DNA from: Cenococcum geophilum
Taxonomy: Eukaryota
Assembly: GCA_050273025.1 (NCBI GenBank)
Contig: CP158635.1
Span: 13,206,001-13,270,000, forward strand
Reading direction: 5' to 3'
DNA length: 64,000 bases
Part shown: piece after piece, positions 12,201-64,000 of the stretch
How the letters are laid out: the number at the start of each line of letters is the position of its first letter
Numbering within the stretch: the first letter of the stretch is position 1
Notes under the pieces: generated by a model
Databases searched by the model: none
What the model was told of the DNA's origin: nothing
The model's input: only the letters and a program-made list of their open reading frames with translations
Made by a program: the position numbers and the translations under genes

Positions 12201-12750
12201 ATCCTTTATAAGTAGCTCCCCTTTTAAGTATCCGGCTTATTTAATATATACTAGGCAATTTAAAATAGGGTAATCTTAGTAGAAGTAAAAAATAATAGAC
12301 TTTACCTATATATAGACTAGCGGAAAAGATTATATTATAATATTACCGATAAAGAATTTTAATCTAAATAAGTAATAAAATTAAAGTTTATATAGGCAAA
12401 ATATTCTATCTACAAAGCTTTATTTATATAGCTAGACTAAAAATAATATAGGTTTCTTGGAAAACGCCACTAATAGTTACTCTATAGAAAAGATTACGCG
12501 CGCTTTATAACCGCTATATTATTTTATAAATAGTTTTTAAAAGAGAAACTCGAAACTTTTATAATCCGCCTAAAAGTAGAGTTATAGCTATCCTTACCGT
12601 ATAGATATGTGGGAGAAGCATTTATAATGCGGTATTAGTAGTAGATTTAAACTATATTCCTAGCTATAATAATAAAACAGGAATATTTAATATAAGACGT
12701 TAACTAGGAAATTTATAAAGTATAAATTCGGATATAAGATCTTAAAATCT
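9250..12750 (+). pseudogene. Unidentified coding-like region (one or two genes), RIP-degraded
   Basis: Long frames interrupted by TAA/TAG, with plus-strand intron-like signals (gctaat..tag ~10930-10948; tactaat..cag ~11587-11604). No family recognised and strand not certain. Confidence 0.3.
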
Positions 12751-20400: not shown

Positions 20401-21438
20401 AAATAAGGTCTCTTATTAACTGGTCTAAAATAGCTAGGAAAATCTTCCTAGACTCTATTAGCGTAGTAATACGATCTATATTAGCTTTTAAGATAGCTAG
20501 TATAAGTAGTTTTAGATTCCGAACAGTGTCTATATTTACTACTAATAGGGGTAAATCTATATTACTATAGCTAATAATCTTCTTCTAAATTTTAGAGATA
20601 TGGTTAAGTCTATAAAGCAGTTCCTAGTTTATTTAGCTAGCACTCTCTATAAGTAAGTGGAGAATAATATACCTTATTACACTTAAGCGTTAAGAATCTA
20701 TGTAGCGCTCCGATCTGAATTGGTTTCTATAGGCCTTGCATTTCTACTAGGGCATTAAATACTATCGCAAAGTGGGAATTCTTAAGAAGTTGTTTTAGAT
20801 TATTTGGTTTGGACCTATCTAATAGGGCCCACTATCTATTTTCTGATTTCGTGTCATTCTTGAGATAATAGTATTATATTTTACGAAATACTTCCCCATT
20901 TAACGGTTTCTATTTATTTAAGTATTCTTTAATTATCCTTATAAGGACTATTTATGGGAGATCTATAATAGATTCTTAGCTAGAATAGTAAGATACTTAA
21001 GTAAACGCGCTTATCTTTAGAGAAGAGCCTTACTATCTATTACTGGTTATTATTGTCTAAAAATTCTTTAGCAGCTTTAATATAATATAAGCCTCTAAGG
21101 CAGTCTACACTCCTTAGGCTAATAAACGGTATCGAGTTACCCTCCTAAAGTTAACGAAAATGTTGTTTATTAAGACCTAAAAAGGCTAGTAATAAGATAA
21201 GGGCCGCATTATCTATAATAGCATTAATGAAATTTTCTTTTTCTAGCCTTTTATAACCTACTCTTTTAAATATATTTCTAAGGCGGCGGACATTCTTTTT
21301 GGATGGTAACCAATGTTTTTTACGTATAAGAGGATAGTCGAAATTAAGTGCCCTAAGTTTTATTTTTGCTATACCTAGGTAGTTCCGCGCCTTAAGTATA
21401 GACAGCTTAAAGTTATCTATAGTTATAGGAAGAGCCAT
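17500..21438 (-). pseudogene. DUF3723-domain protein with long coiled-coil C-terminus (Starship auxiliary gene)
   Basis: ORF 21151-21438 (YLGIAKIKLRALNF..KNVRRLRNIFKRVGY(C)KRLEKENFINAIID) continues after de-RIPing as VDCL.GLHRIEAAKEFL...WTVRLF; EEYSNEQKPSDGEVFRKIR.Y; RWWALL..SKP.DLKQLLK...AFDAL..MQGLW..IQIGALHR.LTLKCDE. 3' end approximate. Confidence 0.9.
18457..18810. repeat. 147-bp (49-codon) tandem repeat, ~2.3 copies, in the coiled-coil tail of the DUF3723 gene
   Basis: agattgggc recurs at 18457, 18604, 18751 with near-identical intervening sequence. Confidence 0.9.
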
Positions 21439-21695: not shown

Positions 21696-24600
21696 ATGGC
21701 GAAAATTCCTTAAATAACTATTAATTTTAAAAGCAAAGGTGCTATTACTAAGCACTGATAAGCTTTTAAGTCCTTAATACTAGAAGAGAGCCAGTATTAG
21801 AGCCTATTATTTATTACGCTAGTTAGTAAAAAAACAAAGTCTGCGGTTCTGTAATACCTACTAGGAAATACTATAGATAGAAAATTTCTAGCTAATACGT
21901 ATAATTAAATCTACCTTTAGGAAGACCCTAAAACCTATAAAGATACCTCACTAATCCTTTTTATTAATTGCGAACTTTAAAACTATTCTTTATTATAGTT
22001 GCTTCTTTCCTATAGCAGTAGGGAGATAGTAATAAGAAAAATCTCTTAGTAGCAGCCTTTAAAACGTCGCAAAATGCTTGGCTTGTTATTATGTGATTAA
22101 GTACTCTTACCTTTCTCTAATATAGTCTGCTATTTTGTTACGGATCTAGGCGGACTAAGGGAGGTATCTAAGCTTATAGCTTAGTAAGCTGTTAAATCTC
22201 TAAGTTCCGATCTCCCCGTGCTCCCCTATATTCTACTAGTATTTAATATATCCTTACTAACCTTTAATAAAAATATTGCTGAATTAAAGTCTCTAGCTTT
22301 AATAACCGAAATAATGCAGAACTTTAAGTAATATAGTAAAGCTAAAGACGTAAATATAGATCTAAAGGCTTATTTTTATAGTATCTATATCCTTAGACTA
22401 AATTCGTCTATAAGCCTAGCGAAACGTTTATACGCGTTCCGAAAGCGAATTCTTTTTATATTAAAAGAAGCACGCGTCTTACGCCAATCCACTTAAGTTA
22501 AATTCCGTTTTAAGCATTTTAAGGCTTTATTAAGCTTGGCTTTAGAGCACTTCTACTTTACTATTACCGCCCTATTTTTATTTGTCTAAGTAGTATAACC
22601 TTATAGCTTCTTAAACGAGGGGTTCTCGGCGTGCCTTAGAGATCTTATTAAGTATATACCGTCTTAGGCATAGCTATAGCACTTTATTACCCTATTAGTA
22701 GTATTAGCGTTAATCCTATTAAGCTATCCCCTGGGTTCTTATTATATAACTCCCGCCCTAAATCTAGCTAACTAACTGATGCTAATTATAGACTTTCTTC
22801 CTACTTTTATCTTCTTAAAGCATTTCTCAAACGCTTATATCTCTGTAATGTAGGACTATGCTATAGATATAAGTATTTACACGAAATTTTTATTAGCGGT
22901 TCTAGATAATTTCCAGTCTATGTTTTAAATACTCTAATTAAACTCTTTATTAACTATATCCTAGATTTACACATAAAATATCGCAAGGCTTTGGCCCTAA
23001 GTAGTAGAGTTTAGAAACTATAAGTCTTGCTTCTGTTATCTAATGCGAATGCCTAAAAAGGTATTAGACTGCGGTTATGTACTCTATAATATATATATTA
23101 AAATATATAGAAGACGATTATCCTTAACGAAATACAGCTATTATCTTTTGTTTTGTGTCCTTTATGCCTTACCTTATAGAGCGTCTGATTTTTAATTTAT
23201 GCCACCTAGTACTAGTATCTGTATTTTGAGTATAGACGGCGGAGGTATAAGGGGAGTTATATTCCTTATCTTTTTAATATATATTAAGCAGGCACTATCT
23301 AACTTTAGATATTTACTGCGAGAATATTTTAACCTTATCTATAGCACTTCTGCGGGTACATAAAAATGAAATATTATTAATAAGAACTTAAGTTAATCTA
23401 GTATTTAGGTAGGATGACCGCTATAGGGATAGGTCTCTTAGGGTGGAGCGCAGCCGAGTCGTTATAGAGATTTGAGGATGTAGTAAGTAAGACCTTTAAG
23501 CGGCGAAAATTTAGATCTACTTTACTTACTAGGTTATAAAAGATAATGTTAAGCTACGCCTAAGATGGCTAGTATAGCCTTACCGCCATCAAATTAGGCT
23601 TTGAGGCCGCTTTTGGATCCTATCTAAAGATGTTTAATCTACTAATAAATAATACTAGAGTTATAGTAACAATGATAACTGCTAAGGAGTTATAGCCTTA
23701 TTTGTTTTGCAATTATAATAAGGGTAAGCGACCTAAGGAGATTGGTAAGTAAAGTACTTTTTTAATTTAATGCAGTAGCGTCCTAATTATATAGGGTATA
23801 GTTTAATCTAGGCTAATTATTTACAGCATAATATATCTATTAGTAAAGCGTACGTTTAGTTTAGGGGATATTTAGAATTAAGCTAATGCATTTTAGGGCA
23901 TGTTGTACTTCTACTGCACCCTAGTTAGCTAATCTATTATATATCCTATAATTTAATACTAAATTAGAAAGGTTCTTTAAACCTAAAGTAGTAAAAAACC
24001 TTAGTACTTTTTAGGATGGGGGCCTTTAAAATAATAATCTAATTGTTATTACCTAATTGGAAAGTCTATTCCTATAGCCTAAAAAGGGCGAGCCTAACTT
24101 TACTCTCTTATTAGGGACCGGTATAACCTCTATGCTAATAGCTGCTAGCACTTAATCTTTAGTTATAGATTAATTTTACCTAAAACTCTTTAAAAGTTTT
24201 ATGCGGAGTCTAGACAGCGAGGAAGCTTAAAAGAGGTTTATTTATACTATCCTAGTATAGTACTATAGTAGATATTATTGTCTTAATCTTTATCTTTAAG
24301 GACCTAAACCTCTACTTAATAACCTATCTATAGTAGGAGAATTAAAAAGCTAAACTACGGAATATATAAAATTAAGTTCTATAATTCCTACTATTATAGA
24401 CTTAATATACGCTGCAATGTTCTACTTTAAGCTTAAATATCTCTTTTAGTATATTAACGGCCGTTATAAGTGCGTTAGTTATATATTTTACCAACTTAAT
24501 CTCCCTCCTAGTAGGCGTTAATACTTATACTCTTAGCTTATTACTACATTATCTTAGTTCCTTATTTATAGTTATCCAATAGCTTATATATTAAAAGTAC

Positions 24601-32489: not shown

Positions 32490-34155
32490 TGTAAATAGAA
32501 GCTATAAATTCTTCTTATACTACTATAACCTATAACGTATATCTGCCCTTATCTATTTATAGGTATAGTGTAGTAGACTAACTCTTATTAAAATTTGTCT
32601 AGTAGAATCTATCTATAGATTTATTAAATAGAGATACTTAGTTGCGTAGCGAGCCTTATATTTACGGTATGTAGTATCCGCTTTATTAAGTTTTAAACAG
32701 TATAATTTTGGAATAAGTAAATCGGCTATATAGAAATCACCGCATATTTTGGTTCTAAAAGGCGCTATAATATAATAGTCTAATGTTTTACATTCTTGGG
32801 AACGAGTAATAATTCTAGCTAGCACTACCTTTTGGCCTCTAGTTATATCTGGTTCCGCATTAGTTTTAGAAAGGTTATAGAACTAAAAAAACCCAAACAG
32901 TTTTAATGTAGTCAAATTTATATAGGTTGTTTTTAGCGGTCTCTCTAAACTATAAGTAAGTTTGGTCTATAGGTAGCATATTAGGATTAAAGTTCGCAAC
33001 AACAAATTTAAATAGTTATAACGTTAGTTCTATAATTTTTAAACAAGGCTAGATCCTAGCGGATGTAAATGTTAAAAGTTAAGTAGTAAAAGAAATGTTT
33101 AGGGTTTAGTAAAAACTTATATTTATTTATAGTTTGTTTATATACAGAAGCTATAAGTAGAGCTCGCTGTTTATGTAAAATGTTCCATATATATAACCTA
33201 CACCTATAATATAGGCTTTAGTTATTGTAGTACTCTCTATAAAATGTTCTAGCTTAGCTTATGGAAGGATAACTCCTATATAATGTCCTAATGGGTAATA
33301 ACTAAAATCCTTATAGATATGAGGGCTAGAAACTATAAAGTGCCTAAAAAAATCTAACACTCTTAGGTAAATGTTAACGTTATACTTATCTTCTTCTAAA
33401 GCATCCTTTACCGCTAAATCTTATCTAGGATATTTGTAGAGTTTAAAGTCGGTATTAGAAATAGAGACGGTTAAAAAGTAAGAATAGTTAAGTACGAGGT
33501 AAGATATAGTATTAGGGCTTATGTCTAAAATGTACGGCTGGTTTATAACGCGAGGTGAGCTTTAACTAGCTAGAAAAATTGTTTAAAGGGAGATAAGAGG
33601 TTATAGAATGCTTATAGAAAACAACTTATTAGCGGATAGAGGGAGGTTTTAGTGTATAGTTACTTGCCTAAAAGTTAAGCGCAGTTAGTAGTAACGTAGC
33701 CGTTATTATGAGGTAGATAATGTAAACGAGGTCTTTATTAGATAGGGTATGCGATTTTTAGGGGTCTGTTTAAGTGTATAGAAGACTTAATTGGCCTAAA
33801 ACTAACTTCTTTAGTGCTGTATTAATAGCGAGGCGCAGATTACAGTGTAAATTGTGAAGGCTTATTCTATAGGCATTAATACCTAACTAATACCGGTGCT
33901 GCGGGTGATAAAGACCGGTAGCTGCTTGTCTCAGACGCACTAAAGCCTAAATTAAAGGCAAGTGTGCTATAAATATATATGTAGAGGTTACTAACTAGTA
34001 GGAGGGGAAGTAAAGGGTTTCTATAGGGCGAGAATTGCCTCGCTTCTAGCTATACTTTAGATACTAATAGAATATAGAGCCACTATTGGTATTACGGAGT
34101 AGGGATTGGTGAAGGTTAAGAATAGTACTTAAGGCTTAAGTCGGTATTGCTATAT
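32490..34155 (-). pseudogene. Hypothetical protein, paralog A (unknown family, N-terminal CxxC-like motif)
   Basis: VVLARIITRSQECKTLDYYII..ADLLIPK..ATKYLYLINL*..RQILIRVSL..*IRADIRYRL; aligns with 36600-38510. Confidence 0.6.
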
Positions 34156-36599: not shown

Positions 36600-38510
36600 C
36601 TTTGGATGTCCTGTATAGGTCTAAAGGAAGAATAACTATTAATACTATATAATCTATAGCGTATATCTGCCCTTATCTATTTATCTAATAACAATTCACC
36701 ATAGATCTGTAGGCATAGTGGTAGACTAATCCTCATTAAAATTTGTCTTATATAACCTATCTATATATTTATTAAATAGAGATACTTAGTTGTATGGTAA
36801 GCCTTATATATATAGTATATAGCTTCCGCTCCATTAAGTATTAAATAGTACCCCTTTAGAATAAGGAAATCGCCTATAATTAAAAGATTATTTTATTTAA
36901 TTTTGTAATTAGTAATAATATATTCGTTAAATGTTTTAAATTTAGGGGGATAAATAATGATTCTAGCTAGCACCACCTCTTAACCGCTAGTTAAGCCTTA
37001 GTTACTGTTAGTTTAGGGAAAGTTGTTAAGTTGGAAACTTAAACTGTTTTAATGCCGTTATATATTTGCGAATTTAGATTATAATTTAAATGAAATTCCT
37101 TATAAGTTTGTAGCTTAGGTAGTATATTAGGATTAAGGTGCGCAGCTATAGTTATAAGTAGTTATAACTTTGGTTCTATAATCGCTACCTAAGGCTAGAT
37201 CCTAGCGGACGTAAATATTAGGGGTTAAGTTATAAAAGAAACTTTTACAGTAAGTATAAACTTATATCTATATATAAAAGCTATAAGTAGACTTTCTCTC
37301 TTAATTTAAACGTTCTATATATACGATTCCTATATACCGTAAAGGATATAGCCGTTACACTATTACTGGTTATAAAAGATTCTAGCTAGTCTAGAGAAAG
37401 GATAACTCCTATACTATATCCTAGTGGCGAAAGATTAAATTTCATGTTATTTTATACGTAAGTCTATATAAAAATATAAACATATAATTAGATATCGGAT
37501 TAGTGTAATAGGATTATATTAAGTAAAACGAATTACTAGAAAGTAGTTAAGAATCTATTAGTAGTAGTAAAGACGCTACTCCTATAGAAAGCTTAGTAAT
37601 TAACTAGCGTAGCTTAGCTAGAAGTATTAAATTCTAAGGCTGCCTCTGCTTTTGGTTTAAGCTTAGCTTAGCTAGGAGTATTAAATTCTAAGGCCGCCTG
37701 TGCTTTTAGTTCGCAATATAAGACTTTAACTACACCCTCCCAACCGTTGCCGCAATAAGCGCCCGTTAAGCGCCATTTATAGTAATGCTCTTTAGACGAG
37801 ATAATACGACTATATAACTAAACTACAGCAACAGTATAGTAGTAACCTTTAACTACCTTGTCCTAAACGTTGATTTATATATCCCAATATGCCTAAAATA
37901 TAGCCTTGGCCATTGCTATAAAATATTAGTGGTATATAGTAAAAGTAAATATTAGTAAACTAACAGAGAACTAGTCTAAAGTCTATTGTTAACGGCATTA
38001 TATTAATATAGTTATGCTAATATTAGTTAGAGGTAGAAACGTACAAATCGTTAAGATTAGCGCGTAGTAACTAGTGCTATTACTAAAATTGCGAGGTGTA
38101 GGTCATAATGCGAAGGATTTAGTAGAGAAGGTATAGGTTTCTTAGCAGCCTTTTATATTATGGCACTAACTTAAGACTAAGCTTCTAATGTATAAAGGAT
38201 GGTAAAGGGCACGCTAATTACGGTGTGCTTAGGCTTAGAAAGATTAACCTAACCTATATATATATATGCGGCGGGTAACGAAAACCGGTAAGTGTCTGTC
38301 TTGGAATTATTAAGGCTAGATCGCGGATAGGAGGTGCCACTAATATATATTTAAAGACTATAAGGCTATAGAAAACTTACGTAAATACTACCTCGCGTCT
38401 AGTTATACTTTAGACACTTATAGAATATAGGGCCGCTGTTAGTATTGCGGGTAGTAAAGATTAATAAAGGTTAAAAATAATGTTTAAGGCTTAAATTGGG
38501 ATTGCTAGAC
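36600..38510 (-). pseudogene. Hypothetical protein, paralog B (unknown family)
   Basis: VVLARIIIYPPKFKTFNEYII..GDFLILKG..TTKYLYLINI*..RQILMRISL..*IRADIRYRL; third-position differences from paralog A support this frame. Confidence 0.6.
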
Positions 38511-40079: not shown

Positions 40080-40470
40080 GGAATAACCCTTATATACCTA
40101 TTATAGAGTATTAAACCTCGCCTTCTCGCTGTCGCTGCTTTCTGGTAGAATATTAATGGCGGTATTAGGCTCGTATCCCCATTTTAGAGTATTAAACCTC
40201 GTCTCTATATTATCGCTGCTTGCTAGTAGCATATTAGTGGCGGTGTTACCCTTATATGCCCATCGCAGAGCAGTAAAACTTACCTCCTCGCTGTCGCTAC
40301 TTTCTGGTGGAATATTAATGGCGGTATTAGGCTCATATCCCCATTCCAAAGCATTAAACCTTATCTCTATATTGTCGCTGCTTGCTAGTAGTATATTAGT
40401 AGCGGTATTACCCTTATATACCTATTACAGAGCAGTAAAACTTATCTCCTTACTATTGCTACTTACTAGC
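40080..40470. repeat. 81-bp (27-codon) tandem repeat with alternating A/B units (162-bp higher-order repeat)
   Basis: Minus-strand ORF WGYEPNTAINIPPESSDSEEVSFTALR / WAYKGNTATNMLLASSDNIETRFNTLK alternate. Confidence 0.9.
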
Positions 40471-41609
40471 AAAATTTGCGCAAGGTTGCCGCGGGTATTA
40501 AAAGGGGTAGGGAAATTTTGTGATAAGCGTTCTTAACTAAGGCGTAGTATAAGGGATTTGCCTACTAACTTAGAGGTTTAAGGATATTGTTTAATTAATT
40601 ATAGAGAAGATGTTCTATAGCCTTTAATAAGTTAGAGGTTTGCTATCCGGAAGCACTATTACACTCTTATATGTCTATATACTCTCTGCCTACTAACCCG
40701 CAACTGCTATAAGTATTTCCAACCGCCCTACATTCTAGCCTTCTAGCTAATTTAACTGGTAATCTTATTTATTATCCGTTTTCTAGTTAAAGCTACCTCC
40801 TAATAAATAGTTTAACTAAAGTCTAGAGTTTAAGCAGATTCGTTTTCCACTTGGCTAAGAAAAGGGGAGGACTTATTTAGCTAAGCTTAACTAGGCTAGA
40901 CTAATACAGTTTAGAGGGTAATTAACTTACTATTTCTACTAGAATATAGAAAAAGAGATACTTATAAGAGGAGCGAACGCTAACTTGTTAAATACCCCAC
41001 TTATATAGATTAACTTACACTAATTAAACTAGTTTATTATCTCCTATATAAATATTAAAATTTCGGGATATTATCTATTCTATAGCCATTAAATAAATAG
41101 GAGTACCTCGCTTATATTTATTATTTAAAAATCTTTTATAAAGTAGGATATAAGAGCCGATATCCTAGAGGTCTTTAGACTAGCTTAAATAATAAGATAC
41201 TTAATCCTGAATAGAAGACGTCGTCTAGCTATAGGCTCTTTAGAAAAGTTCTTTAATCTCCAAAACTCTTCTATACGTCTACCTTTTACAAAAGCAGATA
41301 TATCCTTAATTAATATCTAAAGTTTTAATCTGCCGTAAGTGGCTATTTCCTACTAATTAAAATTATTCGCCAAGTTTCGATTAGTAAGGTAAGTTTAAAA
41401 ACGTCTTCTAAGTAAATTATAGCCGTTAAATTTAACTATATTATCAGTCCTCCAATCTTTTATTTTCCCCTTTTTATTAACAAAAAAAGCAAAAGCTGCT
41501 CCATTTAGGATATATACGCGGATTTCTTTAAGGCTTAATTACAATTTTAGGATTAATTTTCTATAACTAGTGTTTTTATTTAGTTCCTTAATAGTAATAG
41601 TAAGTAGGG

Positions 41610-42000
41610 GAGGTAAAGTAGGAGGGGAGGGTTAAGTAGGTTTGTAGTTAGGGGTGGCTAAATAACTAGCCTTATCCTCTTACGTACTTTTATATTCTGA
41701 AGAAGGTAAAACAGGTAGGGGGGGTTAAGTAGGTTCGCAGTTAGAGGTAGCTAAATAACTAGCCTTATTCTCTTAGGTGCTTTTATATCCTAAAGGAGGT
41801 ATAGTAGTTAGGGAAAGTTACGCAGTCGGTTTGTAGTTAGAGGTAGCTAAATAACTAGCCTCTTTCTCTTAGGTGCCTTCGTGCTTTAAGGAAGGTAAAA
41901 TAGGCAGAAAAAGACGTTGGATATATTTATGGCTAAAGGTAGCTAGCGGGTTAGCCTCGTCCCCTTAAATGCTTTTATTCTTAAAAGGTAGTAAAATAAG
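41610..42000. repeat. 93-96-bp tandem repeat (~4 copies) within a minus-strand Pro/Ser-rich coding region
   Basis: gctaaataactagcc recurs at 41657, 41750, 41846; minus frame EDKASYLATPNYKPT*PSPP. Confidence 0.85.
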
Positions 42001-42266: not shown

Positions 42267-44268
42267 GTTTTTTAGCGCTAGTGCGCTAATCTAGGTAACG
42301 CGGCAACAGGACACGCATATAGGACTTTAACCTTTGGCGATATGCTCGTTAATTAATATTCCTTCCGTATAAGCATTCCGGAATGTTTGCGATCTATAAG
42401 TATATACTTTTCCAAGCTATCTCCATTAGTCGATTAATCTCTACTACCTATAGTGGAAAGAACTAACCTTATTCTTCACTATACTCTCTAATTAGAGTAA
42501 GATATGCTGCGAGATTAAAGGGGCTAAACCATTAGCTGCGGATATGCCCTCTTAAACTGGGATTTTAACGCCTTAATAGGAATCGGCGAGCGGCTTTATA
42601 AACGTTAAGTATAGATTTTAGTTTTATATTTGCGGCATACTCTACTAGCACTCCCTAAAAAAGAAAGAGGTAATTACTATCGCGATATCTTATTATTAGG
42701 GAAACTAACTTTAGCTTATAGGGGAGGGTAGTTCTTAATTAATCCTCGGATATGTCTAAATCTTAAATAGCGTAGTAAGAGGAGGACGGACGCTTGGTAA
42801 TATATAGAGCAATTACGCCCCGGCGGCTAGAGATGCACGTTAACTATATAGTTGCCCCATTACCTTAAGGCCTTACCAATTCTCCCCGCTTTGTATTCCC
42901 CCGCATTCGCGCCCTACCACTTAAAGTATTAGGCTAATTGTTATTTGCCCTGTTTCTATAGCATTAGGCTAAGGCTAATATATAATACACTTATTAATAT
43001 AGATTCTGTTCTTCCCCTTATTATTATTATACTTATAGCCTACGTAGTCGCGACCTTTAGCAGCATTTATACCATTCTTATTGCTAAAAGCCCTTTTATA
43101 ACCTATATTACGCCTTATCTAATTACTTATAACATAGTGCATTTTATTATCCTTACTATAGTATATAGATTATTATTAGGTATTAGGTAGTAGGATAAGT
43201 TAAACTAGGCCCTTCTAAAGGCTGCTTTACTTCTTATAACTACTTTAGAGGTAAGTATAAAGCCTAAGTCCTTTATGTATAACTAATACCTACTTAAATT
43301 TTTACAGCAACTATTTTTCTTCCCTTAAGTGTAAAGAATATATCCCTTATAGGTATTCTAAGATAGGTATATCTACTTAGGAGTTCGGTTATTATAGTAC
43401 TAGGGGTATTTTTAATGATATATTTTGCGATTATATATATAAAAATTCTAAATTAGGGCTCTAACACTGACTTTGCCGAAGTGGAACTACTGCTATAAAA
43501 ACTAAGGTATATTGCGGAATACTGGCTATCCTTCTCCTTAGGAGCGTAACTATCCTTTCCTTCTATATAGACTACTGTAAGTCTATATTTGGCTTATAAG
43601 CCGCAATAATTAGAGATTAGGGTTGGCTGCAAGCTGACTTATACAGATTTTTCGTTATCGCGATTAGTATAGCTATAGGCGTGTTATTGAAATTCCCGGA
43701 ATAAGGTTATAATATAAACTAGGTATATCTTTATAAACTACTTCTCTTTTAATTACTAACATTTACAGGTCCTTTTTTTAATAATATCCGTTTTAAACCT
43801 TCGCATTATACTATATAGTGGTATTAGATACTTTAAACCGTCCTCTTCCCCGGATTAATATACTGGTAAAGATAATATATTAACTGTCGATCTACGCTTA
43901 ATAACTGCTAGTAAATCATCTGTTAATATAGATTTAGAATTAATATCTCCTCCTCCTTCTTCTCTTTTTTTACTAGTTTATAAAACCAAGTCACCGGATA
44001 GGATCTACCGTTATCTATACTCTTAGATTACGTAGGGAAATGTTCCCCTTATCGTATTACCAGTTTATTATTTAGCGCCACTAAAGCCTAAATAAAACAA
44101 TTTCAGGGGGATCTACTACTTGGGTTAGCCGCTTACCGTAAGCTTCGTTAGCGTTTTTATTTAGATAGCGAAGTTATAACTAATATCGCCTATAAAACAA
44201 TTTGTATATTTAGCAAGGAAGAATAAATGTATTTCTATACCTATGACGATTTTAATAAAGACTATAAC

Positions 44269-44441
44269 TGTTGGTCACACAGGGTGACTTACTAATGCTA
44301 CTTAAGTAGATATAGTGAATGTTGGTTATAAAGCTTGTTGTTTAGAATTAGGGGGTAGGTGAGGAACTTAAGGTTCCTTACTACGCTAGTGCCGCGGCAA
44401 CACGTGACGATACGTGATGACTGCTTGCCTTATTCCCGACA
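44269..44441 (-). repeat. 3' LTR (left copy)
   Basis: tgttggtcacacagggtgac...ttattcccgaca; the differences from the right LTR that I checked are transitions. Confidence 0.93.
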
Positions 44442-44803
44442 CTAGCAACTCTTTTTTTATGGTTGCCATCTATATATACTTGTAGATTGCTAATATATAA
44501 AGATACAAAGCTAAGGAAAAGAAGAAGAAGAAAAGAAAGGACGTTAGGGTTTAATATAAAGATAAGGGGGCCGCTAAGGCGCTAGTAGTAAGCGAGCCAA
44601 TAGCGATTTTCTATCCCAGGGATGGAAAATCCTAATTGGCTAGCGGACGTTAGGGTCGGCAGAATATGGTAGAATTTAGTAGGTAGCACGCCCTAGGAAA
44701 CTACGTTGTTAAAATAGGGTTGCGGAGCTAGCGGAGTGTAACTAGATACGGCTAGCTCGAGCAAATGGGAACAATAGTTAACTAATAGGAATGCTCTTAA
44801 ATT

Positions 44804-44865
44804 GCCTTTGTCATCGCATCTGCCGGGTTATCTTGGCCATTAATTCATTAAATCCTAAATAGTTC
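44804..44865 (-). pseudogene. Copia RNase H C-terminal remnant
   Basis: ELFRI**INGQDNPADAMTKA matches the Copia EIRWI.G..NPADAMTK motif. Confidence 0.85.
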
Positions 44866-44872
44866 TTAATGC

Positions 44873-45095
44873 TCTACGAGGACCTCCACGAGGACCTCTG
44901 CGAGAACCTCCACGAGAAACTCCGCGAGGACCTTCACAAGGACCTCCATAAGGACCTCCACGAGGATCTCTACGAGAACCTCCACGAGGACCTCTATGAG
45001 GACCTCTATAAGAACATCCACGAGGACCTCTATAAGGACCTCCACGAGGACCTCCGCGAGGACCTCTATGAGGATCTCCACAAGAACCTCTATAA
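44873..45095. repeat. 12-bp tandem repeat (gaggacctccac), ~18 copies, inside the LTR element
   Basis: Directly visible; produces the HEDL/VEVL ORFs in the track. Confidence 0.95.
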
Positions 45096-45179
45096 GTGCT
45101 TTATGGCTGGCATTGATCGTACCCTCTACTATATTCTAATTCCTTATAAAACTTCTTCTCCTGGTCTGAATAGAGCTTT

Positions 45180-46610: not shown

Positions 46611-47710
46611 ATAACATCGTTATAAGTCTACAGTTCTTTAAGCTAGGAGGAACTAAGGAAATCGAGAAAATGGAGACTACTGTTATGCAATTAATATTTA
46701 TCTTATGTTTTCTCTGGCGGGATCTTAATAGTAGTTATAGGTGTTATAAATTCCTACTATTAGTAGATTAGATCTCTATACGTAATTGCGATTAACTTTT
46801 TTATATTTTAGTTAAACCGCCTCTGCTATAATATAAGAAATCTACAATTCTATTCCTATAGTCATTCGTTAAATTAAGTTAATAAAGGCAATATCCGTCT
46901 AACCTTTATTTTACTAACTAAACTAGTAAAGTCACCGCCTGTCTAAATTAGCGATAAAGCGCTACTAGACTAATTTGCTGGAGTACCTGTTTATAATAGT
47001 TCCGATAGTGCCCTTATCCGGCTAATAAATTACGCCTCCCTATACTTCCTCTAGCAGTCTCTTACTATTTAGCTTAGCAGTCCTCTCTCTAACCTATATA
47101 TTTATCTAAAATAGGTCACTTGGCCTTTTTAGCTTAATCCGTCGACGGTATATATATAACGTTTTATACTTTACTTAGTACTTACCTCTTCCCCATCGTG
47201 TTTATTGGTTATTTCAGCTATTGTTATACATTTTCTCTTAGTCCTATTAAATAGTTAACTATTAGGCACTAAACACTAACAAGCTAAATATTAAAGATCT
47301 CGTTTTCCCCTCTTATAGCCCTCCGTAGACGTTAAATACTATTTTCTTAACTTTACCTAGAGCCTAAAGTTCTGTAACCTAGAAATAAGGCAGCCGTAAC
47401 TCCTCTAAGTCACTCTTTAGATATAAAATCTTCTTAATATTTGTACTTAGATAAGACATTCTTTAATACTAAAGAGGAATAAACTATACAACCTTATAAA
47501 GAAGAGTACTACTTTATACCCCCTTATAGAAACCTGTTACATTGGTTTAGATCCTTCTCTAATAAGTACTAAAAGATGTTATAAAACCAGCAAACGAGTG
47601 ACTAGTAGTTTAGAGGACGAGTGGAGTTACTAAGACTAAGGGGAGAGGCATTGCGAGTAAAAGGAGATAAATAGTTAGAGGTAAAGGATCCTAGTAAGAG
47701 ATAAAGGATC

Positions 47711-48172
47711 CAGAACATGCTTATATAGCGACAATTCCGTAAGTAAGGCTCCGTCTACCTTTTTATATTACCCTTAAGATTGTTTATTAATAACGTATCG
47801 CCTCTATAGGAGAGAAGAAATAAAATAAAATAAAAAGAAGAGATAAAACAAGAGGTTAAAAATCAGAATATACTTATATAGCGACGATTCCGTAAGTAAG
47901 GCTCCGTCTACCTTTTTATATTACCCTTAAGATCGTTTATTAACAACGCATCGCCTCTATAGGAGAGAAGAAATAAAAAAAACAAAAAGAAGGGATAGAA
48001 TAAGAGGTTGAAAATCAGAACATGCTTATATAGCGACGATTCCGTAAGTAAGGCTCCGTCTACCTTTTTATATTACCCTTAAGATCGTTTATTAATAACG
48101 CATCGCCTCTATAGGAGAGAAGAAACTAAGAGAACAAAAAGAAGAGATAGAATAAGAGGTTGAAAATTAGAA
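47711..48172. repeat. ~152-bp tandem repeat, 3 copies
   Basis: cagaacatgcttatatagcgac(a/g)attccgtaagtaaggctccg.. starts at 47711, 47864, 48016. Confidence 0.95.
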
Positions 48173-49299: not shown

Positions 49300-50180
49300 C
49301 CACAGCGCTCTAAAAGTTTAGCGTTATTATAGGCTATAGAATGTAGATAAGAAGCGGAGTTTTATATTCTACTAGAAGTAGGAGCTAATATCTAAGCGAT
49401 AGACGATTTTGGTTGGACGCCGCTGTTACTGGCTACGAGTAATGGTTATAAGGTGGTGGTAAAGCTACTTCTTATATGGGATAATATTGATCTAAACTCC
49501 GAGGATAAATTTAGGGCTACGCCACTATTATTAGCTGCAGAATATAGAAGTAAGGTAGTAGTAGAGCTACTGCTTATACAGGATAACGTTAACCTAGATC
49601 CTAAGAGCGCTCTTAAAAATATATTGCTGTTATAGGCCGCGATAAACGGGTATAAGGGGGTAGTAAAGCTACTACTCGCGCAGGATAGTATTAGCCTAAA
49701 TCTTAAAGGCTTCTATAATTAAACACCACTATTAGCGGCTATGGAACACGAGTACGAGGTAATAGTAAAGCTATTGCTAATAAAGGACAGCATTAGCCTA
49801 AACTCTACTAATATTAAAGGTCGGACTCCGCTCTTATAGGCTATAGAGAGTAGATAAGAGGGGATAGTAAAGCTACTGCTTATATAGAAAGGCGTCAACT
49901 TTAATTCTAAGGATAGTAATAGTCGAACACTACTCTTATAGGCTACTTAATAGGCACATAAGACTGTAGTAAAACTATTACTTAAGGATGGCGTTAACGC
50001 GAAATCTAAGGATAAATATAGCAAAACGCCGTTATAGTAGGCAGCGGAGGGCTAACATAAAATAAGAGAAATGTATTTATTAAATACGCGGCTAGTAGGG
50101 TTAATAAATAAGATATATAAGCTAGTGGTTTAGCTACTACTTAGAAAGGATAATAATATAGACTTCGACACTATATATAC
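49300..50180 (+). pseudogene. Ankyrin-repeat protein (~7 repeats)
   Basis: GANI*AIDDFGWTPLLLATSNGYKVVVKLLL..DNIDLNSED; GRTPLL*AIES..EGIVKLLL; KDKYSKTPL**AAEG. Confidence 0.93.
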
Positions 50181-57090: not shown

Positions 57091-60000
57091 TAACGTAATT
57101 GCGAAAGTCTTTATAGGAAATTTCTTATTCCTTAGACTTCTTAGAACCCCTATCTTTAATATAATCTACCTTTCTCTTACGTACTATTCTTCTTAATATC
57201 TCTTCTAATAGATCCTCTAATGCTTTTCCTAGTTAATCTCCTTGCTTACATAGTTTGCCCCTCTTAGCTATTTCTATTATAATATCTTTAAGCGGTTTAT
57301 ATATCTTAGCATAACGGCAGAGGTAATAAGGACTTTCAATATAGTATAATAAAAGTTTCTTTTGCGGTATAGCTACCGCTAAAACCTAGGTAGGATACCA
57401 GTATATTACTGCGATAGGACTATATAAAGATATAATTCCTCTATAACTAGGGTTTTAAAGGCGTATTATATCCTTTATTATATAATAAGTAGGTAACTAG
57501 GATATAAGATACTTTACTTATCCGCTTAAGATCTTGGTATTAGAAATTATTAATACTTTAGATGGATATATAAGGACTAAACCATTCTCTACTTAATTAT
57601 TAGTGTTGTAAAATAATATAGGCGTCTTATAAATATACCTCTAGGTACCGGCGAAATATATTTAGAACCTATAACTATATTTATCTACTAGGATAAGCCT
57701 TTAATATGGTTCTTTTTCAGTTAAGGTAAGTCTATTTTAGCCTCGCTATGGTCCTCTATTAGCTTAGGTAAGTCTATTTTAGATTCGCCGTGGCCTTTTA
57801 AACCCCTAAGGTAATTAAGGTATATTTTTTATATACTTGCCTAAACCGTATCCTCTTATATATCGCCCTTTATATTATCGTCCTTTTTGTAAGAACTGGC
57901 CTTATTAGGTGTTTAGGTAGGTGTATAAAGTATCTACTCCTATATACGACCAGAAAGCTATAATTATTTCTTTTCTCTGCTATTAGATGCTGCGTCTTTA
58001 GCGTTAATATAATTTTAAGATAATTTAGGGTTTCTAGTAGGTTGACGATTAGATATAATATCTTTAGGGAGGTAGTATATAGTAATGTCTTTATAGGTAC
58101 TAATTGAGGGCCTATAGGCTATATTAGCAACGTATCTAAATTTAGTTAAGGTAATATATATAATGTTTAATATTCTTATAAGGATGGTAAGGGATATATA
58201 GTTAATAGGTTAAATTTAAAGGTAAGTTAAATTAATGGCATATAAGAACTAGGAGCACGACGTTTATACTCCATTTCTCTTTTAGGGCTAAGTTAGGATA
58301 GAGGGTAGAAGGAAAAGGCGAAGTATACTAGCCGCCCTTTTCCACTTTATATGGTGTCCGTAGTACAATATTTAGTAGCTATAATTACTCTTAGCTTATA
58401 TATTATCTACGCCCAAGATTATAAGCGCCTAGAGTGATCTATAAGTGAGGCATTATTGGAAGTAGCCATTGGCTAAGCTATTGCTAGATTTAAATAGCTA
58501 ACAATCCCTAACGGACGCTGTATACCTTAGTAGGGTTTAAAAGCGTTTATATAAAGTTATAAACTAGAATCGGAAGTTAATAATAACCTCTAATAACGCC
58601 TCCCTTGGCAGGAACAGTATTATATAATTTACTTTTAACGCCCGTCCTTTATAGAGTAAAACACTACTTAAGTAGTAGACTTACCCTAGCTAGTTAATCT
58701 TATATATTAACTCCCCATCTATAGTAAAGGAGCTATTAGTACGCTGCTAGGAGGCTTAGTTAGTATCCTAGCTAAGCCCTTTATAAATGCCCCGCCTTAT
58801 ACGGGCGGTATAATAACTCCTACTAATCTGCCTTGCGCTAAGGGAGGACTTATATTTAAGGCACTAAGCAGCTAGTACAGAGGCCTATAGGCTTGTTCTA
58901 TATCCCAATAATATTAACTATAATTTCTCTTTAAGTAGTATCCCGTAACCCTAAGTACCTATAAGCGTAGCGTCCCTAAATCGTTAGCTAGTAAGTAGGC
59001 GTTTATAGATAGAGAAATCGGCTTTAGAGATAGTGACGGTAATATAGAGGCGTTAACTAGTTAGAAGAGTAACTCTAGTAATAAGGATTAAGAATGGGAT
59101 GTAGAGACATTATATAGCGGAGAAAATCGTTTTAGTACTAAAGGTTAAGAAATATAGGCAGATAGTAATAAAGATATATTAAGCGACGAGGCTATATAGG
59201 CGACAATTAAATACGGTGGCCTTAGCTTTATAGTCCTAAATCTATAAATATAGGGTATAAATACAAAGAAGAGTTCTAATAAAAGCTAGTAAAAGGGTTA
59301 AAACTTTAGCCTCTTTTTGTTTAGCCTATCGCGAAATAAGATAATATTTCACCATTCCCACTAAAGTCTCAGCCCGCTTAACTTATAGCGAGCTATAAAG
59401 TATTTACAACAATCTATACCTTCCCTTAGATAAGTTTATTTATTATCTTAAAAGCGATAATAGAATATAAATCTATGCTAGCAACCTAGGATTTTTTATA
59501 TTTCTTATGGACCTGGAATATATACCGCCTTAGCAACTATTAGTCGTGTTTAAGACTATAGTCCTTATAGATTTATACCTTAAGGATATAAATATGTTAT
59601 TTTATAGTGTTTTCTTTTTATTTAAGTCGTTTCTCTACTTATTATATACAGTGGTTGTTCATCTATTCCGGTATAGTGGGGAGGAGTAGTTAAGTTATAT
59701 AAGGGGGCTTAGACTTATAGCTACGCTTATAGGGCTGTTTATATAGGGACTTCTTTAAGTATATATAAGGGGGCTTTAAGTCGTTATAAAGTTTATAGGA
59801 GTTATTATATGGGAATTTCTTTAATATTTCTAGATTTGGTCTTATATATTTCTTTTATTTCTAGTTTTAGGATCTTTATAAGATTTGCTTCTTATTAATT
59901 TAGATTTATATATAACGTATAAGGCTTAAATATAGCAAGGCTAAAAAGGACGCTAGCGTAGAGCTTAAAATTTGCATCCGTCCTTAACTTGGCTATTTAT

Positions 60001-60131
60001 TACAGGTTCCGGATTATTAGTAAAACCGTTTAGATATTTCTATTAATCCGCTTAGCCTAAATCGCCCATCCGCTATAAACAAAACTCTCCCCTATACGCT
60101 CTCCCGTTATTATTATTATCGCCACTATAAT

Positions 60132-62573
60132 ATAGCCTAATAGTTACCCGATTATAAACAGCTTTTCCTTAAAGAGTAACGTAGACGGTAAGAAGAGCAA
60201 CGTAAATAATAAGAAGAGCAGCGTAGATGGGAGGAGGAGTAGCGTAGACGAGAAGAAGTAGAGCGTGTATAGGAAGAAGTAGAGCGTATATAGGAAGAAG
60301 TAGAGCGTATATAGGAAGAAGCAGAGCGCGTATAGGAAGAAGAATAATATAGATAGTAAGAAGCGGAGCGAGCCCGGGAAGAAGCTAAGGGAAAAACCTA
60401 TAAGACAACACTACCTAAGTTTCTTAACGCCTATCATGCCTATCTCTACTCAGGCCTTACTATTCAAATTAATGCGACGTTATTAACATAGGGCGACCCT
60501 ACTAATGCGAATAATAAGATTTGCCCCAAAAGAATCTAAGCATAGGAAGATTTTTTAGTATAGTAGGAAGCCATCTAGAACGACCTTATAGGATCGAATT
60601 TCATACTAGAACGGCACTTTACTTCGCTATATACATTAGAAGAGTCTAGGGAGGCTATTTACTAAAGGATAATAAGTTCTAAGCTAGACTTAAATTACTT
60701 TTAGCGCTATACCGTTAAGGACCATATATTATTAATTATTAAATAACTTTATAATAATCCGACGCTTCGGCGGAAGTTCCGCCTAAAAGGGTTAGTAAAG
60801 TTTAAAAATTATACTAATACTTTTAGCCCGGAATGGCGGATAGAGGAGGATATATAATAAATAAGTATATCTAGAAACTAGCGATATTAGTTACCCCGTT
60901 TCTAAGCCTAGGCTAAGCAGATAAAGCTACTAGGCTTAGCTGGCTTAGCCAAGCCTACGGCTATAGTAATGGCAGAATTAGTAAGGTCGTCGCGTCCTTA
61001 TATAGATTAGTTCTATATATATAACACTTTTAGTAAAACTTAGAATACAAAGTATTGCATTACTACTTTTATTATTAAGTATAAGGCTCCCTATAAACTA
61101 ACTCTTAGCTACATCTATAAGGGTCTTAATAATATAAAACTTAAGGAAGTAGTCCGCTGCCATAATATCAACAGCCTATAGGACCACTTCCGTTACCTAG
61201 TCGCTGCTATTATTACTTAGGCCTTTTCTTATATAGTCTAGGCTAGACTAAAGTATAGGTATATTTATACTAGTAAAGCATTTATCTTTCTATAAGTGCC
61301 CTATAATCCTAAAACGGTTTACTACTTCCTATCTATCCCTAAGGGTAACGTTAGGGAGACAACTAGATAGGCACTGGATTTAGATAGGGGAAATTAATTA
61401 TATCTAACCGCCGTTAGATAGATACTAGTATTTACCCTTTAGGCGCTAAAGACGCCGCCTTAGAATTAAAATTAGCGGACTAATATAGCCGCTTAACTAA
61501 AAAGCTAGGAGGTAATCTATGATAATCTACTAGATATAATTCCTATATATAATGCGCCTTTATTAAAGTACCGGGCACCTAGGCAAAATAATTTTCTTTA
61601 TATATTACCTATCTAGCTCCGACCTAGAGTAACGTTAACTAGTTTCTTCCGGTGTTACCTATTACAGAATTAGAGTGAGTTTAGTAATAATAAGTTTAAT
61701 CCTAATACTCTAAGCTATCTATCTTAGCGGTCCCTACCTTAGCCTTTACCCTAAGCCCTAGACCTTACTAGCAGATTATTATTTAGTCGCGATTCCCGCT
61801 ATAGAGGTAAAGGTAGGCGGTATTATACTTAAAAATGTCTTCTTAGCTTAGTAGAGGGGGGTTTGCTTAATAAGACGTGTTTAAATATATAAGATTACAG
61901 CGGGAGCCATTATTAGATTAACTAACCCACCTTCCTTAATCTTATGCGCTAGCAACTCTTAAAAGATTTAAATTCTAATTATAAGCTAGTAGGCGTATAT
62001 AGAACACATAGGGCTCTATTTAAGGTTAGGTTAACGTTATATAAATATACCCTAGCCGCAAAATGCACTATTATTAACTTTATTAGCTACCTAAATTAGG
62101 AGGCTACTGTCTATAAGCGCCTCTGTCCGATTTAAGGTATATATATACTGGTATATCTAGGAAATATTAATCTTAACCATCTATATTTCTATAACAGTAT
62201 TATAGAGATTATTTATATAATGTTCCTTAGTTTTAGGGGGAAACTAATCTTTTAATATATTAACGGCGATAATAGGCTATACCTAATAGAATAGGTTAAG
62301 CGCTTAATTCGGGCCGTTTATTAACTAGGAGTTTTGCACTAAGATATAATGCCTTATAATATACTTTGGAATATAGAGGTTAGCAAAGCAATAATAATTA
62401 ACTTTAAACGGGCCGAAGTTTTAAAACCATAGGCTGCGCTAGGTGTTATCTTACTAAATTAAAAGAAAAAATGGGTACCTAAAGAGGGTTTAAATAAGCA
62501 GCCGGGAGGATATTATAATGAATTTATATAGGAGATATAACGGGTAATAGTAGAACTCCGCGGGTTAAAATAG
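60132..62573 (+). pseudogene. Spok-like (spore killer family) protein: coiled-coil, PD-(D/E)xK nuclease-like, Cys cluster, kinase; 814 codons, intronless, RIP-inactivated
   Basis: PDYKQLFL.E*RRR*EEQR..EEAER coiled-coil; TTLPKFLNAYH; VKFKNYTNT (FENH.NT); RP..D*FY(C)IYN; IIK(E)YKAPY(H)KL; VAAIIT*AFSYIV*ARLKYRYIYTSKAFIFL; YY(C)T*KCLLSL..G.LNKTCL(P)N; GALFKVRL..Y.YTLAAK; GVLH*D..PYNILW..IN(D)FK(E)RA. Confidence 0.88.
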
Positions 62574-62899
62574 CTAGGGTGTTTACCGTATTAGTAAATT
62601 AAATAGTCTTTATAGCTTCTAGACCTAGAAACCCTTATAGGCCCCCTTTTTTTCTATTATTCTATAAACTAACTTCTATTTTAAGGATAATGCTATCCTC
62701 TACTAGTAAAGAAGACGCTAGTAGAGCGACTAGACTTAAATACGTAATAGGGGAATATAGTTCTGCTTGCTTTAGACGCCAAGCTTAGTTAAATCTGCTA
62801 ATTTATTACTAATTAAGTATATAAATACGGCAAATACTCGCTATAAAGGGCGGGGCTGTTTAGCTTAAATCTAATATATAAATTTCCTTTAATAAGCAA

Positions 62900-64000
62900 A
62901 CAATATAAGACTAAAGAGCGTACTATTTAAGCTAATAAATTTCCTCCTTAATTCTGTAGACTTCTCTATCCTTAGGCTAAGCATACCCTTTTCCTCTTAA
63001 ATGCCGTAATCTTATTTCTTACCTTTATAACCCGTTTATCTCTATAATCTAAAGTTTTATTACTACCTCTCTTAAGAGTATAGATTTCGTTTTAAAGCCG
63101 CTTAATAATATCTCTTATCTCTTTCCAGTTACTTCTTAGGTTGTTAATCTAATTGTTAACTTTCCCTAGATAACTTATAATATAGCGGTCGCATTTTTTA
63201 AGGCTACTAACTCTCCTATTAAGTTGGCTAAGCTTATAACTAAGTTAATTAACTAAGCTACCTAGTCTCTCTATTGCCCCTAATAGAGTAAGCTAGGGGT
63301 TAGTAAGCTTTATTAGAAGAAGTTACTAAACGGACTATATTAAGACGGCTTCTTTATCTCATTAGTGCGGAGTAAGTATTTCCTTATAGTTCCTTTCGCA
63401 TTAGCCTTATTATTCTCTAAATCACTCTTACATTCCGATACTAACTAAATATCCTACTTATATTAGTAAGCTGGCAAATAGATAAAACTATAGGGAAGTA
63501 ACTATTATATACCTACCCTACTATATTAACGGCCTTATTGGAGCCCTTAAAATAGAAAGCATATAGTATATCCTAGCTCTATTAGCGGTATCCCATAAAG
63601 GATTTAATATTTAAAGCGCACCTTGGCCTAATACAATATAGTATCCTCTATTATAGTATCTAAGTGGCTCATTATTAAAGAGATAAGGCAGCTAATAGTT
63701 TAAGTATCTTTACAAGAAAGTAAGGAGGGATTTTCTTAAAGGATACTATACTTAATATAGATCTAGTTAAAGGATATAAAGGCCTTTTATATCCTACTCC
63801 TCTCTACCACCTAGCTAATAGGAGAGCTAATAGTAGACTCCGCTTTAACTATACCTTAAAAGTCGAGCCGATTTACTAACTTAGGGATACTAGCATAGTA
63901 TTACAAATGCGCTATAATACGGCCACAATAGGAGTATAATCCTTCCTATCTATACCTACCTTTACTATACCTCTATAGGAGGGTTACATTAAACGACAAG
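62900..64000 (-). pseudogene. Unidentified coding-like region running off the window edge
   Basis: Long minus frames with RIP-type stops; no family recognised. Confidence 0.25.

Follow-up and report, generated by a model that had tools for sequence, protein, structure and literature searches.

A stretch of 64,000 nucleotides from Cenococcum geophilum (contig CP158635.1, positions 13,206,001 to 13,270,000, forward strand; hereafter the window, numbered from its first letter) carries at 60132–62573 (+) a gene copy related to the Spok genes, which we call the Spok copy. Among fungal meiotic drivers that consist of a single gene, Spok genes are the ones understood best, and they travel on Starship transposons. 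Taken as a whole, the analysis makes us highly confident that the Spok copy is a complete, colinear pseudogene that was killed by repeat-induced point mutation (RIP). It probably belongs to a repeated family and would formerly have encoded a toxin-antidote, possibly within a Starship-like wreck.

The Spok copy comprises 814 codons, among them 65 in-frame TAA or TAG stops, and no frameshift. Counting the terminal stop, the frame is closed by 38 TAG, 27 TAA and 0 TGA codons. The former start codon (60132–60134, +) now reads ATA (Ile) at the place where relatives have a Met, and the 3' end coincides with the end of the intact relative P0153 (...ELRGLK stop). No open reading frame (ORF) of at least 60 amino acids overlaps 58000–64000. 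The stops themselves barely single out the Spok frame, as the remaining five frames over the locus hold 71–102 each, so that the claim depends on homology; a stop-density scan for picking out RIPed genes likewise gave no discrimination.

Searching the window by tblastn with 10 family proteins returned a single locus in a single frame with a single high-scoring segment pair (HSP), which for P0153 covers 60393–62570 at 59% over 727 amino acids. This indicates that the window holds one Spok copy, with no frameshift and no intron-sized gap. Relative to intact relatives the coding frame is free of indels, and the copy forms a single ORF without introns, colinear with the members of the family and of their size (about 700–830 amino acids). 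The locus no longer acts as a gene, its start being lost and a stop occurring every 12–13 codons. In the sequencing-run search, no RNA run was found among the listed holders of the window's words. In the RNA run X21 (organism label B, about 12% of it read), depth was zero over 59809–62220 at a likeness of at least 85%, a weak observation given that runs of this label hold 10–24% of the stretch's words, and most X21 reads on the flanks of the gene continue into unlike sequence.

Family membership and motif blocks

To place the gene, the frame was translated with X at each stop (P0001) and compared by phmmer with 1.84 billion cluster representatives. The search yielded 1652 matches at E ≤ 1e-3; of these, 966 also pass E ≤ 1e-10 and 299 pass E ≤ 1e-30. 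The best match, P0002, is a fragment of 460 amino acids with 59% identity (E 8.8e-162), and P0003 (751 amino acids) aligns through its residues 12–716 to query residues 75–781 in one stretch (E 1.8e-148). Many further proteins of 720–830 amino acids align end to end with P0001, and an alignment of 24 family sequences is colinear along its whole length. A profile search recovered 51 relatives, the closest being P0153 (59% identity, 92% query coverage), P0155 (58%), a protein of Glonium stellatum (55%) and P0154 (52%, 100% coverage), with farther relatives in Zopfia, Amniculicola, Lojkania, Alternaria, Exserohilum, Pyrenophora and lichen fungi. Where homologs are named at all (Uncinocarpus, Emydomyces, Xylona, Hypoxylon), they are called only 'protein kinase domain-containing protein' or 'hypothetical', and a literature search by their accessions found no papers.

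The link to Spok is made by the Pfam family PF27653. A precomputed PF27653.1 match is present on 48 of the 51 closest relatives; the protein atlas lists this family as SPOK2_N and assigns it to 95–99% of the proteins in the three nearest clusters. Partial C-terminal matches to Pkinase, Kdo or APH occur in five of eight homologs, at about residues 640–735. Scanning the read-through translation P0001 against Pfam gave no match, because the Pfam version used does not contain PF27653 and kinase matches are marginal even in intact homologs. P0004, which carries the PF27653 label, likewise shows no PF27653 in that version. In a literature search on Spok homologs, none of the papers listed names PF27653; PMC12693581 gives InterPro IPR052396 as the entry for the Spok family. 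Two points weigh against the assignment. Membership rests on the relatives' precomputed PF27653 labels together with the motifs, and not on a PF27653 score of the window translation itself. Moreover, two protein searches returned no Podospora Spok, and the likeness to Spok1–4 is drawn through published descriptions.

The motifs can be compared block by block. For SPOK3, PMC6660238 describes, from the N-terminus onwards, a repeat of variable length, a PD-(D/E)XK core whose lysine is catalytic, the motif QxxxY, the cluster C-x3-C-x13-C-x5-H and the catalytic loop of a kinase, and all of these blocks are present in our family alignment with the published order kept. In the Spok copy the N-terminal repeat is a tandem array of a 21-bp unit at 60172–60385 (+), coding for EEAERAQ-type heptads, a repeat that would provide the variable-length, predicted coiled-coil N-terminus of the family. 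The stretch ahead of a conserved TTLP measures 91 amino acids, compared with 56–77 in six relatives and 28 in one, and is thus longer by two to five heptads than in those six; the TTLP pattern was unmatched in two of the ten proteins examined. In contigs of the sequencing runs X1 and X12, four of the 21-bp units (84 bases) are missing within 60212–60373, from which it follows that the number of heptads varies among copies or isolates. This agrees with the repeat-length variation that PMC6660238 reports for Podospora.

Further downstream, the blocks are recognisable as mutated remnants. The putative PD-(D/E)XK-type nuclease core (61005–61085, +; codons 292–318) keeps D292 and K318, whereas Q293 has become a stop and C295Y and E316K are replaced; H321Y follows just after the core. 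In the predicted QxxxY motif (61218–61232, +; codons 363–367), Q363 is a stop. D292, E316, K318 and Q363 all correspond to nearly invariant columns of the 24-sequence alignment. The Cys/His cluster (61824–61913, +) lies upstream of the kinase and retains the C-x3-C-x13-C-x5-H spacing at codons 565–589, with C569 and C583 kept and C565Y, H589Y and H594Y changed. At the C-terminus, a kinase-like catalytic loop and a DFG-like motif can be predicted at 62337–62411 (+), where Arg737 of the HRD is a stop, D738 and N743 are kept, and D757N and E759K are substituted. Residues are therefore changed in every described Spok motif block.

Taken together, the PF27653 (SPOK2_N) labels on the relatives and the fit of the motif blocks to published SPOK3 support the identification of the Spok copy as a full-length homolog of the Spok family. 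The first-pass annotation of this DNA, made from the letters alone, had described one 814-codon intronless frame, a Spok-like homolog with all Spok-type segments in order, and an expanded EEAERAQ-type repeat. All of these descriptions have held: the frame through the single tblastn HSP and the full-length phmmer alignments, the segments through their order in the alignment, and the expansion through its extra heptads.

RIP damage and a probable repeated family

The GC content of the window is low throughout, ranging from 0.22 to 0.41 in 1-kb steps. RIP indices are far past the usual thresholds everywhere, with TpA/ApT at 1.55–1.68 and (CpA+TpG)/(ApC+GpT) at 0.29–0.57 in 4-kb bins; within the Spok gene the values are 1.67 and 0.39 respectively.

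Comparing the Spok copy with the intact protein P0153 gives 769 aligned positions, 465 of which are identical and 304 mismatched. Of these mismatches, 256 (84%) are undone by T>C and/or A>G changes in the window codon, whereas the reverse transitions explain 20 (7%) and the four transversion classes 3–11 each. The 55 stops that align to P0153 face Q in 34 cases, R in 15, W in 5 and K in 1. If RIP-type mismatches are counted as matches, upper bounds of identity are obtained, namely 93.8% for P0153, 96.9% for P0194 (a fragment of 445 amino acids), 90.8% for P0002, 90.2% for P0155 and 88.8% for the Glonium protein. Public data thus appear to hold intact natural proteins that may be up to 94–97% identical to the pre-RIP Spok copy, as an upper bound.

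The same bias is seen at the DNA level. As a partner for this comparison we used L003, an intact relative on a metagenome contig with a gene GC of 52.6% and no stops. The two sequences show 722 differences, comprising 487 C>T/G>A changes towards the window (67%), 97 in reverse and 138 transversions. Against L011, there are 787 differences, with 569 C>T/G>A versus 84 reverse. The L003 sites that are mutated in the Spok copy are predominantly CpA (223/328, 68%) and CpG (154/296, 52%), followed by CpT (58/316, 18%) and CpC (52/305, 17%). With transitions collapsed, the Spok copy and L003 are 93.3% alike over 2351 nt. Both a directional C>T/G>A excess and the dinucleotide preference and indices typical of RIP are therefore found. 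Judged by these patterns, the damage bears the mark of RIP, unlike what slow neutral decay would leave; RIP turned the ATG into ATA and Gln, Arg and Trp codons into TAA or TAG stops. The transition bias, the CpA preference, the indices and the stops opposite Q, R and W bear out the earlier proposal that RIP inactivated the gene.

RIP needs duplicated DNA. A second RIPed Spok copy is present on a metagenome contig (L019:3-1365), with a GC content of 31%, 40 stops in 454 codons and 78.6% identity to the window copy. Within 1363 sites the two copies differ by 107 and 136 transitions in the two directions and by 47 transversions, as expected of two copies of one sequence that were RIPed independently. 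The downstream flank of the L019 copy is unrelated to the flank in the window.

Additional copies are suggested by sequencing runs that share the window's words. Four runs of one sample, which may be the one that the window comes from, hold 58–67% of them, and sixteen further runs, from another organism label and from soil and root metagenomes, hold 10–24%; the holders span 11 studies. The contigs aligning to 58000–64000 at a likeness of at least 85% number 4161 in X1, 5772 in X5 and 3659 in X12, most of them in the 90–95% class. They differ almost only by transitions (in X1, 703 transition versus 33 transversion places), and up to 23 distinct contigs carry another letter at a single position of the Spok ORF. 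Within the Spok ORF the summed contig depth in X1 amounts to 220–530, compared with 21–31 for single listed contigs, which points the same way although such a sum is not a copy number. These data are good evidence that the Spok ORF is one of a moderately repeated family diverged by RIP, and that it is embedded in repeats of much higher copy number. They also suggest many diverged Spok copies, both in the genome that the window comes from and in related isolates, in which case RIP probably acted on a repeated family. One X12 contig joins 60112 to 62563 and so skips the whole Spok ORF; its shorter side has 29 letters, and we treat it as unreliable since it may be a repeat artefact.

Starship-type remnants in the window

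A Starship is defined in PMC9156397 by a DUF3435 captain at its 5' end together with its borders. The conserved companions named there are DUF3723, ferric reductase (FRE), patatin-like phospholipase (PLP) and NLR genes, with Spok among the cargo genes, and 'degraded Starships' are recognised by at least three hits to DUF3723, FRE, PLP or NLR genes without DUF3435. We searched for such genes by six-frame, X-read Pfam scans of window positions 1–64000. A RIPed remnant of a DUF3723 gene (PF12520) was detected at 19655–21252 (−), spread over three frames with E-values of 2e-8, 2.1e-18 and 2.5e-38. Unlike the Spok copy it has two frameshifts, and it may thus be older or more decayed. A RIPed ankyrin-repeat array extends over 49369–49914 (+) and continues to about 50100 (Ank_2, E 1.6e-38), with a repeat spacing of 102 bp at 49651–49945; the scan upstream of it revealed neither a NACHT domain nor any other NLR N-terminal domain. 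A possible FRE remnant at 14548–14745 (−) matches FAD_binding_8 just below threshold (E 2e-4, 21.9 bits versus a cut-off of 22). A possible PLP remnant at 23199–24026 (+) matches Patatin with E 0.0064 and 17.1 bits versus a cut-off of 27.7; it has 31 stops in 276 codons, and the motifs DGGGIRG, STSAG and DGGL are readable in its frame at 23235–24026.

All of these remnants lie upstream of the Spok copy, and the order FRE, DUF3723, PLP is the gene-number order of the Voyager reference genes. Counted by the degraded-Starship definition, DUF3723 and Ank_2 are strong, the latter without NACHT, and FAD_binding_8 and Patatin are sub-threshold. We read these remnants as the wreck of a Starship-like element. 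As to whether the Spok copy is part of that wreck, we consider the matter about evenly balanced; the case in favour is that the DUF3723 remnant and the weaker FRE, PLP and ankyrin remnants share one RIP-degraded block with it.

Several results weigh against this. The scans revealed no DUF3435 captain, and within the window we found no terminal inverted repeat, target-site duplication or empty site, nor any long inverted repeats. The DUF3723, FRE and PLP remnants are 36–46 kb and the ankyrin array 10 kb away from the Spok copy, with other repeats between. The FRE and PLP matches are below Pfam cut-offs, and ankyrin repeats by themselves do not make an NLR. These observations leave a serious contender, which we judge just short of an even chance, namely that the Spok copy is a selfish gene standing on its own, or belongs to some other repeat, and landed in a transposon graveyard that also holds an unrelated Starship wreck. 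In line with this, homology to 36 related loci runs from about 60129 to 62575, stopping at the ends of the Spok ORF itself. Plain and transition-collapsed blastn of the whole window found no shared flanks with these loci (matches shorter than 70 nt only), and the moderately repeated unit among the aligned contigs corresponds approximately to the ORF as well.

The flanks of the relatives point in the same direction. At six loci that carry Spok relatives, the scan covered 42 of the 63 long ORFs, Spok ORFs and ORFs overlapping scanned or duplicate ones being left out. These 42 ORFs hold no captain, DUF3723, FRE or PLP; the NLR beside the Spok relative in two loci is the only Starship-type gene. 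An NWD-type NLR is located just upstream in those two loci, the other flanks carry housekeeping genes, and no captain occurs within 10 kb. In the two NLR loci (L012:915-4498 and L002:474-4175), the NWD-type NLR (NACHT_N, NACHT, WD40) is situated about 5 kb upstream of intact Spok relatives, and MCM10-like and galactokinase genes are found on the far side.

A free-standing gene is harder to reconcile with the DUF3723 (E 2.5e-38), FAD_binding_8 and Patatin matches standing in Voyager gene-number order, and with the many Starships on which Spok homologs have been reported. Moreover, the missing captain is weak evidence because Pfam sensitivity is poor on degraded DNA. The same six-frame scans saw no transposase or reverse-transcriptase domain in 64 kb of obvious repeats, which implies that Pfam sees little in DNA so degraded. 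The captain may also lie outside the window, as Starships can exceed its length. The first-pass annotation had the gene 'carried as cargo'. This claim stands in part: the DUF3723 and ankyrin remnants and the sub-threshold FRE and Patatin matches place Starship-type genes in the window, whereas neither a captain nor a border ties the Spok copy to them, and they lie 10–46 kb away.

Former function and comparison with known Spok systems

Before RIP, the gene would have encoded a one-protein toxin-antidote, with a nuclease part for killing and a kinase part for resistance, by analogy with Podospora SPOK3 and from knowledge of the family. The contig alignments suggest that it was part of a repeated family in its own genome and in related isolates, which would have made it a direct target of RIP. 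Transitions, concentrated at CpA and CpG, destroyed the start, created the 65 stops and changed residues in every motif block, and no protein can be made from it any longer. The most likely former function, argued from other family members, is that of a one-protein toxin-antidote favouring its own inheritance, since the pre-RIP copy had every SPOK3 block needed for killing (the nuclease core) and for resistance (the Cys cluster and the kinase).

It is possible, if somewhat doubtful, that the ancestral gene was never a meiotic driver and that its clade comprises vegetative toxin-antidote (addiction) genes or has another role. Killing and resistance in the Dothideomycete-like clade of the Spok copy would rest on other members of the family, and closeness to the Podospora Spoks is shown at the family level. 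The members tested are those of Podospora and some Fusarium homologs. PMC12693581 presents Spok homologs outside Podospora as unvalidated as drivers before its own yeast assays, and proposes a vegetative role in the maintenance of accessory chromosomes. A purely non-driving past sits less well with the toxin and antidote activity that the same study describes in yeast for some Fusarium homologs, with the report that Spok1 kills in Sordaria, and with a pre-RIP sequence in which all the motif blocks connected with killing and resistance in SPOK3 were still present.

A quite improbable explanation holds that there was a single Spok gene, not itself duplicated, and that its mutations came from leakage of RIP out of the high-copy repeats on its flanks. 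It draws on the presence of only one Spok copy inside the window, which also counts against a repeated family, and on the fact that the entire 64 kb is RIP-degraded. Summed contig depth in X1 is 1300–8800 on the flanks, far above the 220–530 of the Spok ORF (single listed contigs, 21–31), although a summed depth is not a copy number and lends the repeated family no count either. What makes leakage improbable is that many distinct contigs of 85–95% likeness cover the ORF in three runs, up to 23 of them differing at one position, that a second RIPed copy exists in L019, and that mutation is heavy along all 2.4 kb with no gradient from the edges. Finally, a low-complexity artefact, in which an AT-rich, Glu/Arg-rich repeat draws coiled-coil matches, was rejected as having practically no chance: even though stop counts are similar between frames (65 versus 71–102) and a first word-based search was swamped, with 51 proteins passing among 8000 candidates, probably via repeat words, codons 57–781 align outside the repeat with E-values down to 1e-162, the tblastn HSPs begin past the repeat at 60393, and conserved Cys, His and Asp columns align.

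The overall design of the RIP-killed Spok copy is that of Podospora Spok1–4, which PMC6660238 and PMC4022471 describe as one intronless ORF of about 750–800 amino acids with the motif blocks in the same order. SPOK2 also gives its name to the Pfam family found on the closest relatives of the Spok copy. Unlike Spok1–4, the Spok copy is no longer a working gene, as it has 65 stops and has lost its start, and whereas the Podospora Spoks belong to Sordariales, the closest named members of its clade are Dothideomycetes and lichen fungi.

Among pseudogenes, the nearest parallel is Spok-psi-1 of P. anserina (PMC6660238, PMC8092012), a Spok with multiple stops that lies in a region read as a Starship (Enterprise) in advanced decay. 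Spok-psi-1 is described as having lost its 5' end and carrying a transposon insertion, whereas the Spok copy is full length, without indels and with RIP-type damage only. The Podospora Spok block is portrayed in PMC8092012 as having no strong RIP signature, in contrast to the RIP-damaged Spok copy. The same source reports multi-copy giant Enterprise elements in Melanconium sp., some of which have been brought to about 30% GC by RIP, a value within the 22–41% of our window. What defines those elements is a captain together with target-site duplications, and they are described there as sharing no Spok with Podospora; in the window, neither captain nor border was found. The FuSpoks of Fusarium (PMC12693581) are often pseudogenized by stops and are enriched in accessory regions rich in transposable elements, with 33 of 408 inside Starships. 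Most are intact by that account, and some are active in yeast, whereas the Spok copy is saturated with RIP mutations.

Spoks are described in print as 'often present as pseudogenes', and both Spok-psi-1 and a pseudo-Spok are placed in a degraded Spok block. Pseudogenized Spoks, a pseudo-Spok in such a block and RIPed Starship copies of about 30% GC are thus already on record. Particular to the Spok copy are its perfect colinearity, with damage by RIP only, the sign of a multi-copy family in related isolates, and the near-identical intact natural proteins. Four metagenome loci (L035, L024, L027 and L023; about 10000–12260 each) contain Spok relatives in two long ORFs, which are either pseudogenes with few lesions or the result of sequencing errors.

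The life cycle of Spok genes is one of spread, divergence and pseudogenization, and the Spok copy represents a clean end point of it, preserved base for base save for RIP transitions. As such it can help to date and to count the invasions of a driver into a fungus with active RIP, and it directs attention to natural alleles that are intact and nearly identical; it reveals no new mechanism. The literature also connects Spok genes with the accessory chromosomes of plant pathogens. A more far-reaching scenario, which we consider unlikely, is that a Spok-type gene multiplied here to perhaps ten or more copies and that RIP wiped out each one, while alleles up to 94–97% identical to its pre-RIP form stayed intact in related environmental fungi. 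Under that scenario the unit of spread may have been about the size of the ORF, or the gene may have travelled on the Starship now wrecked in the window. If true, the defence of a genome against a meiotic driver could be watched here in action, with the very duplication that spreads the driver exposing it to RIP.

Several other repeats were noted in the window. Three colinear direct-repeat pairs, 71–81% alike and about 4.1 kb apart, connect 32570–33306 with 36718–37439, and look like either a RIP-diverged duplication or the two long terminal repeats of one element. Tandem arrays in RIPed DNA occur at 40086–40490 (81 bp), 47670–48126 (152 bp) and 41611–41892 (93 bp), and further ones at 8617–8918 (151 bp) and 18403–18696 (147 bp). 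Where the window is least AT-rich (GC 0.41 over 44001–45000), a 12-bp unit is repeated in 17 copies at 44848–45135.

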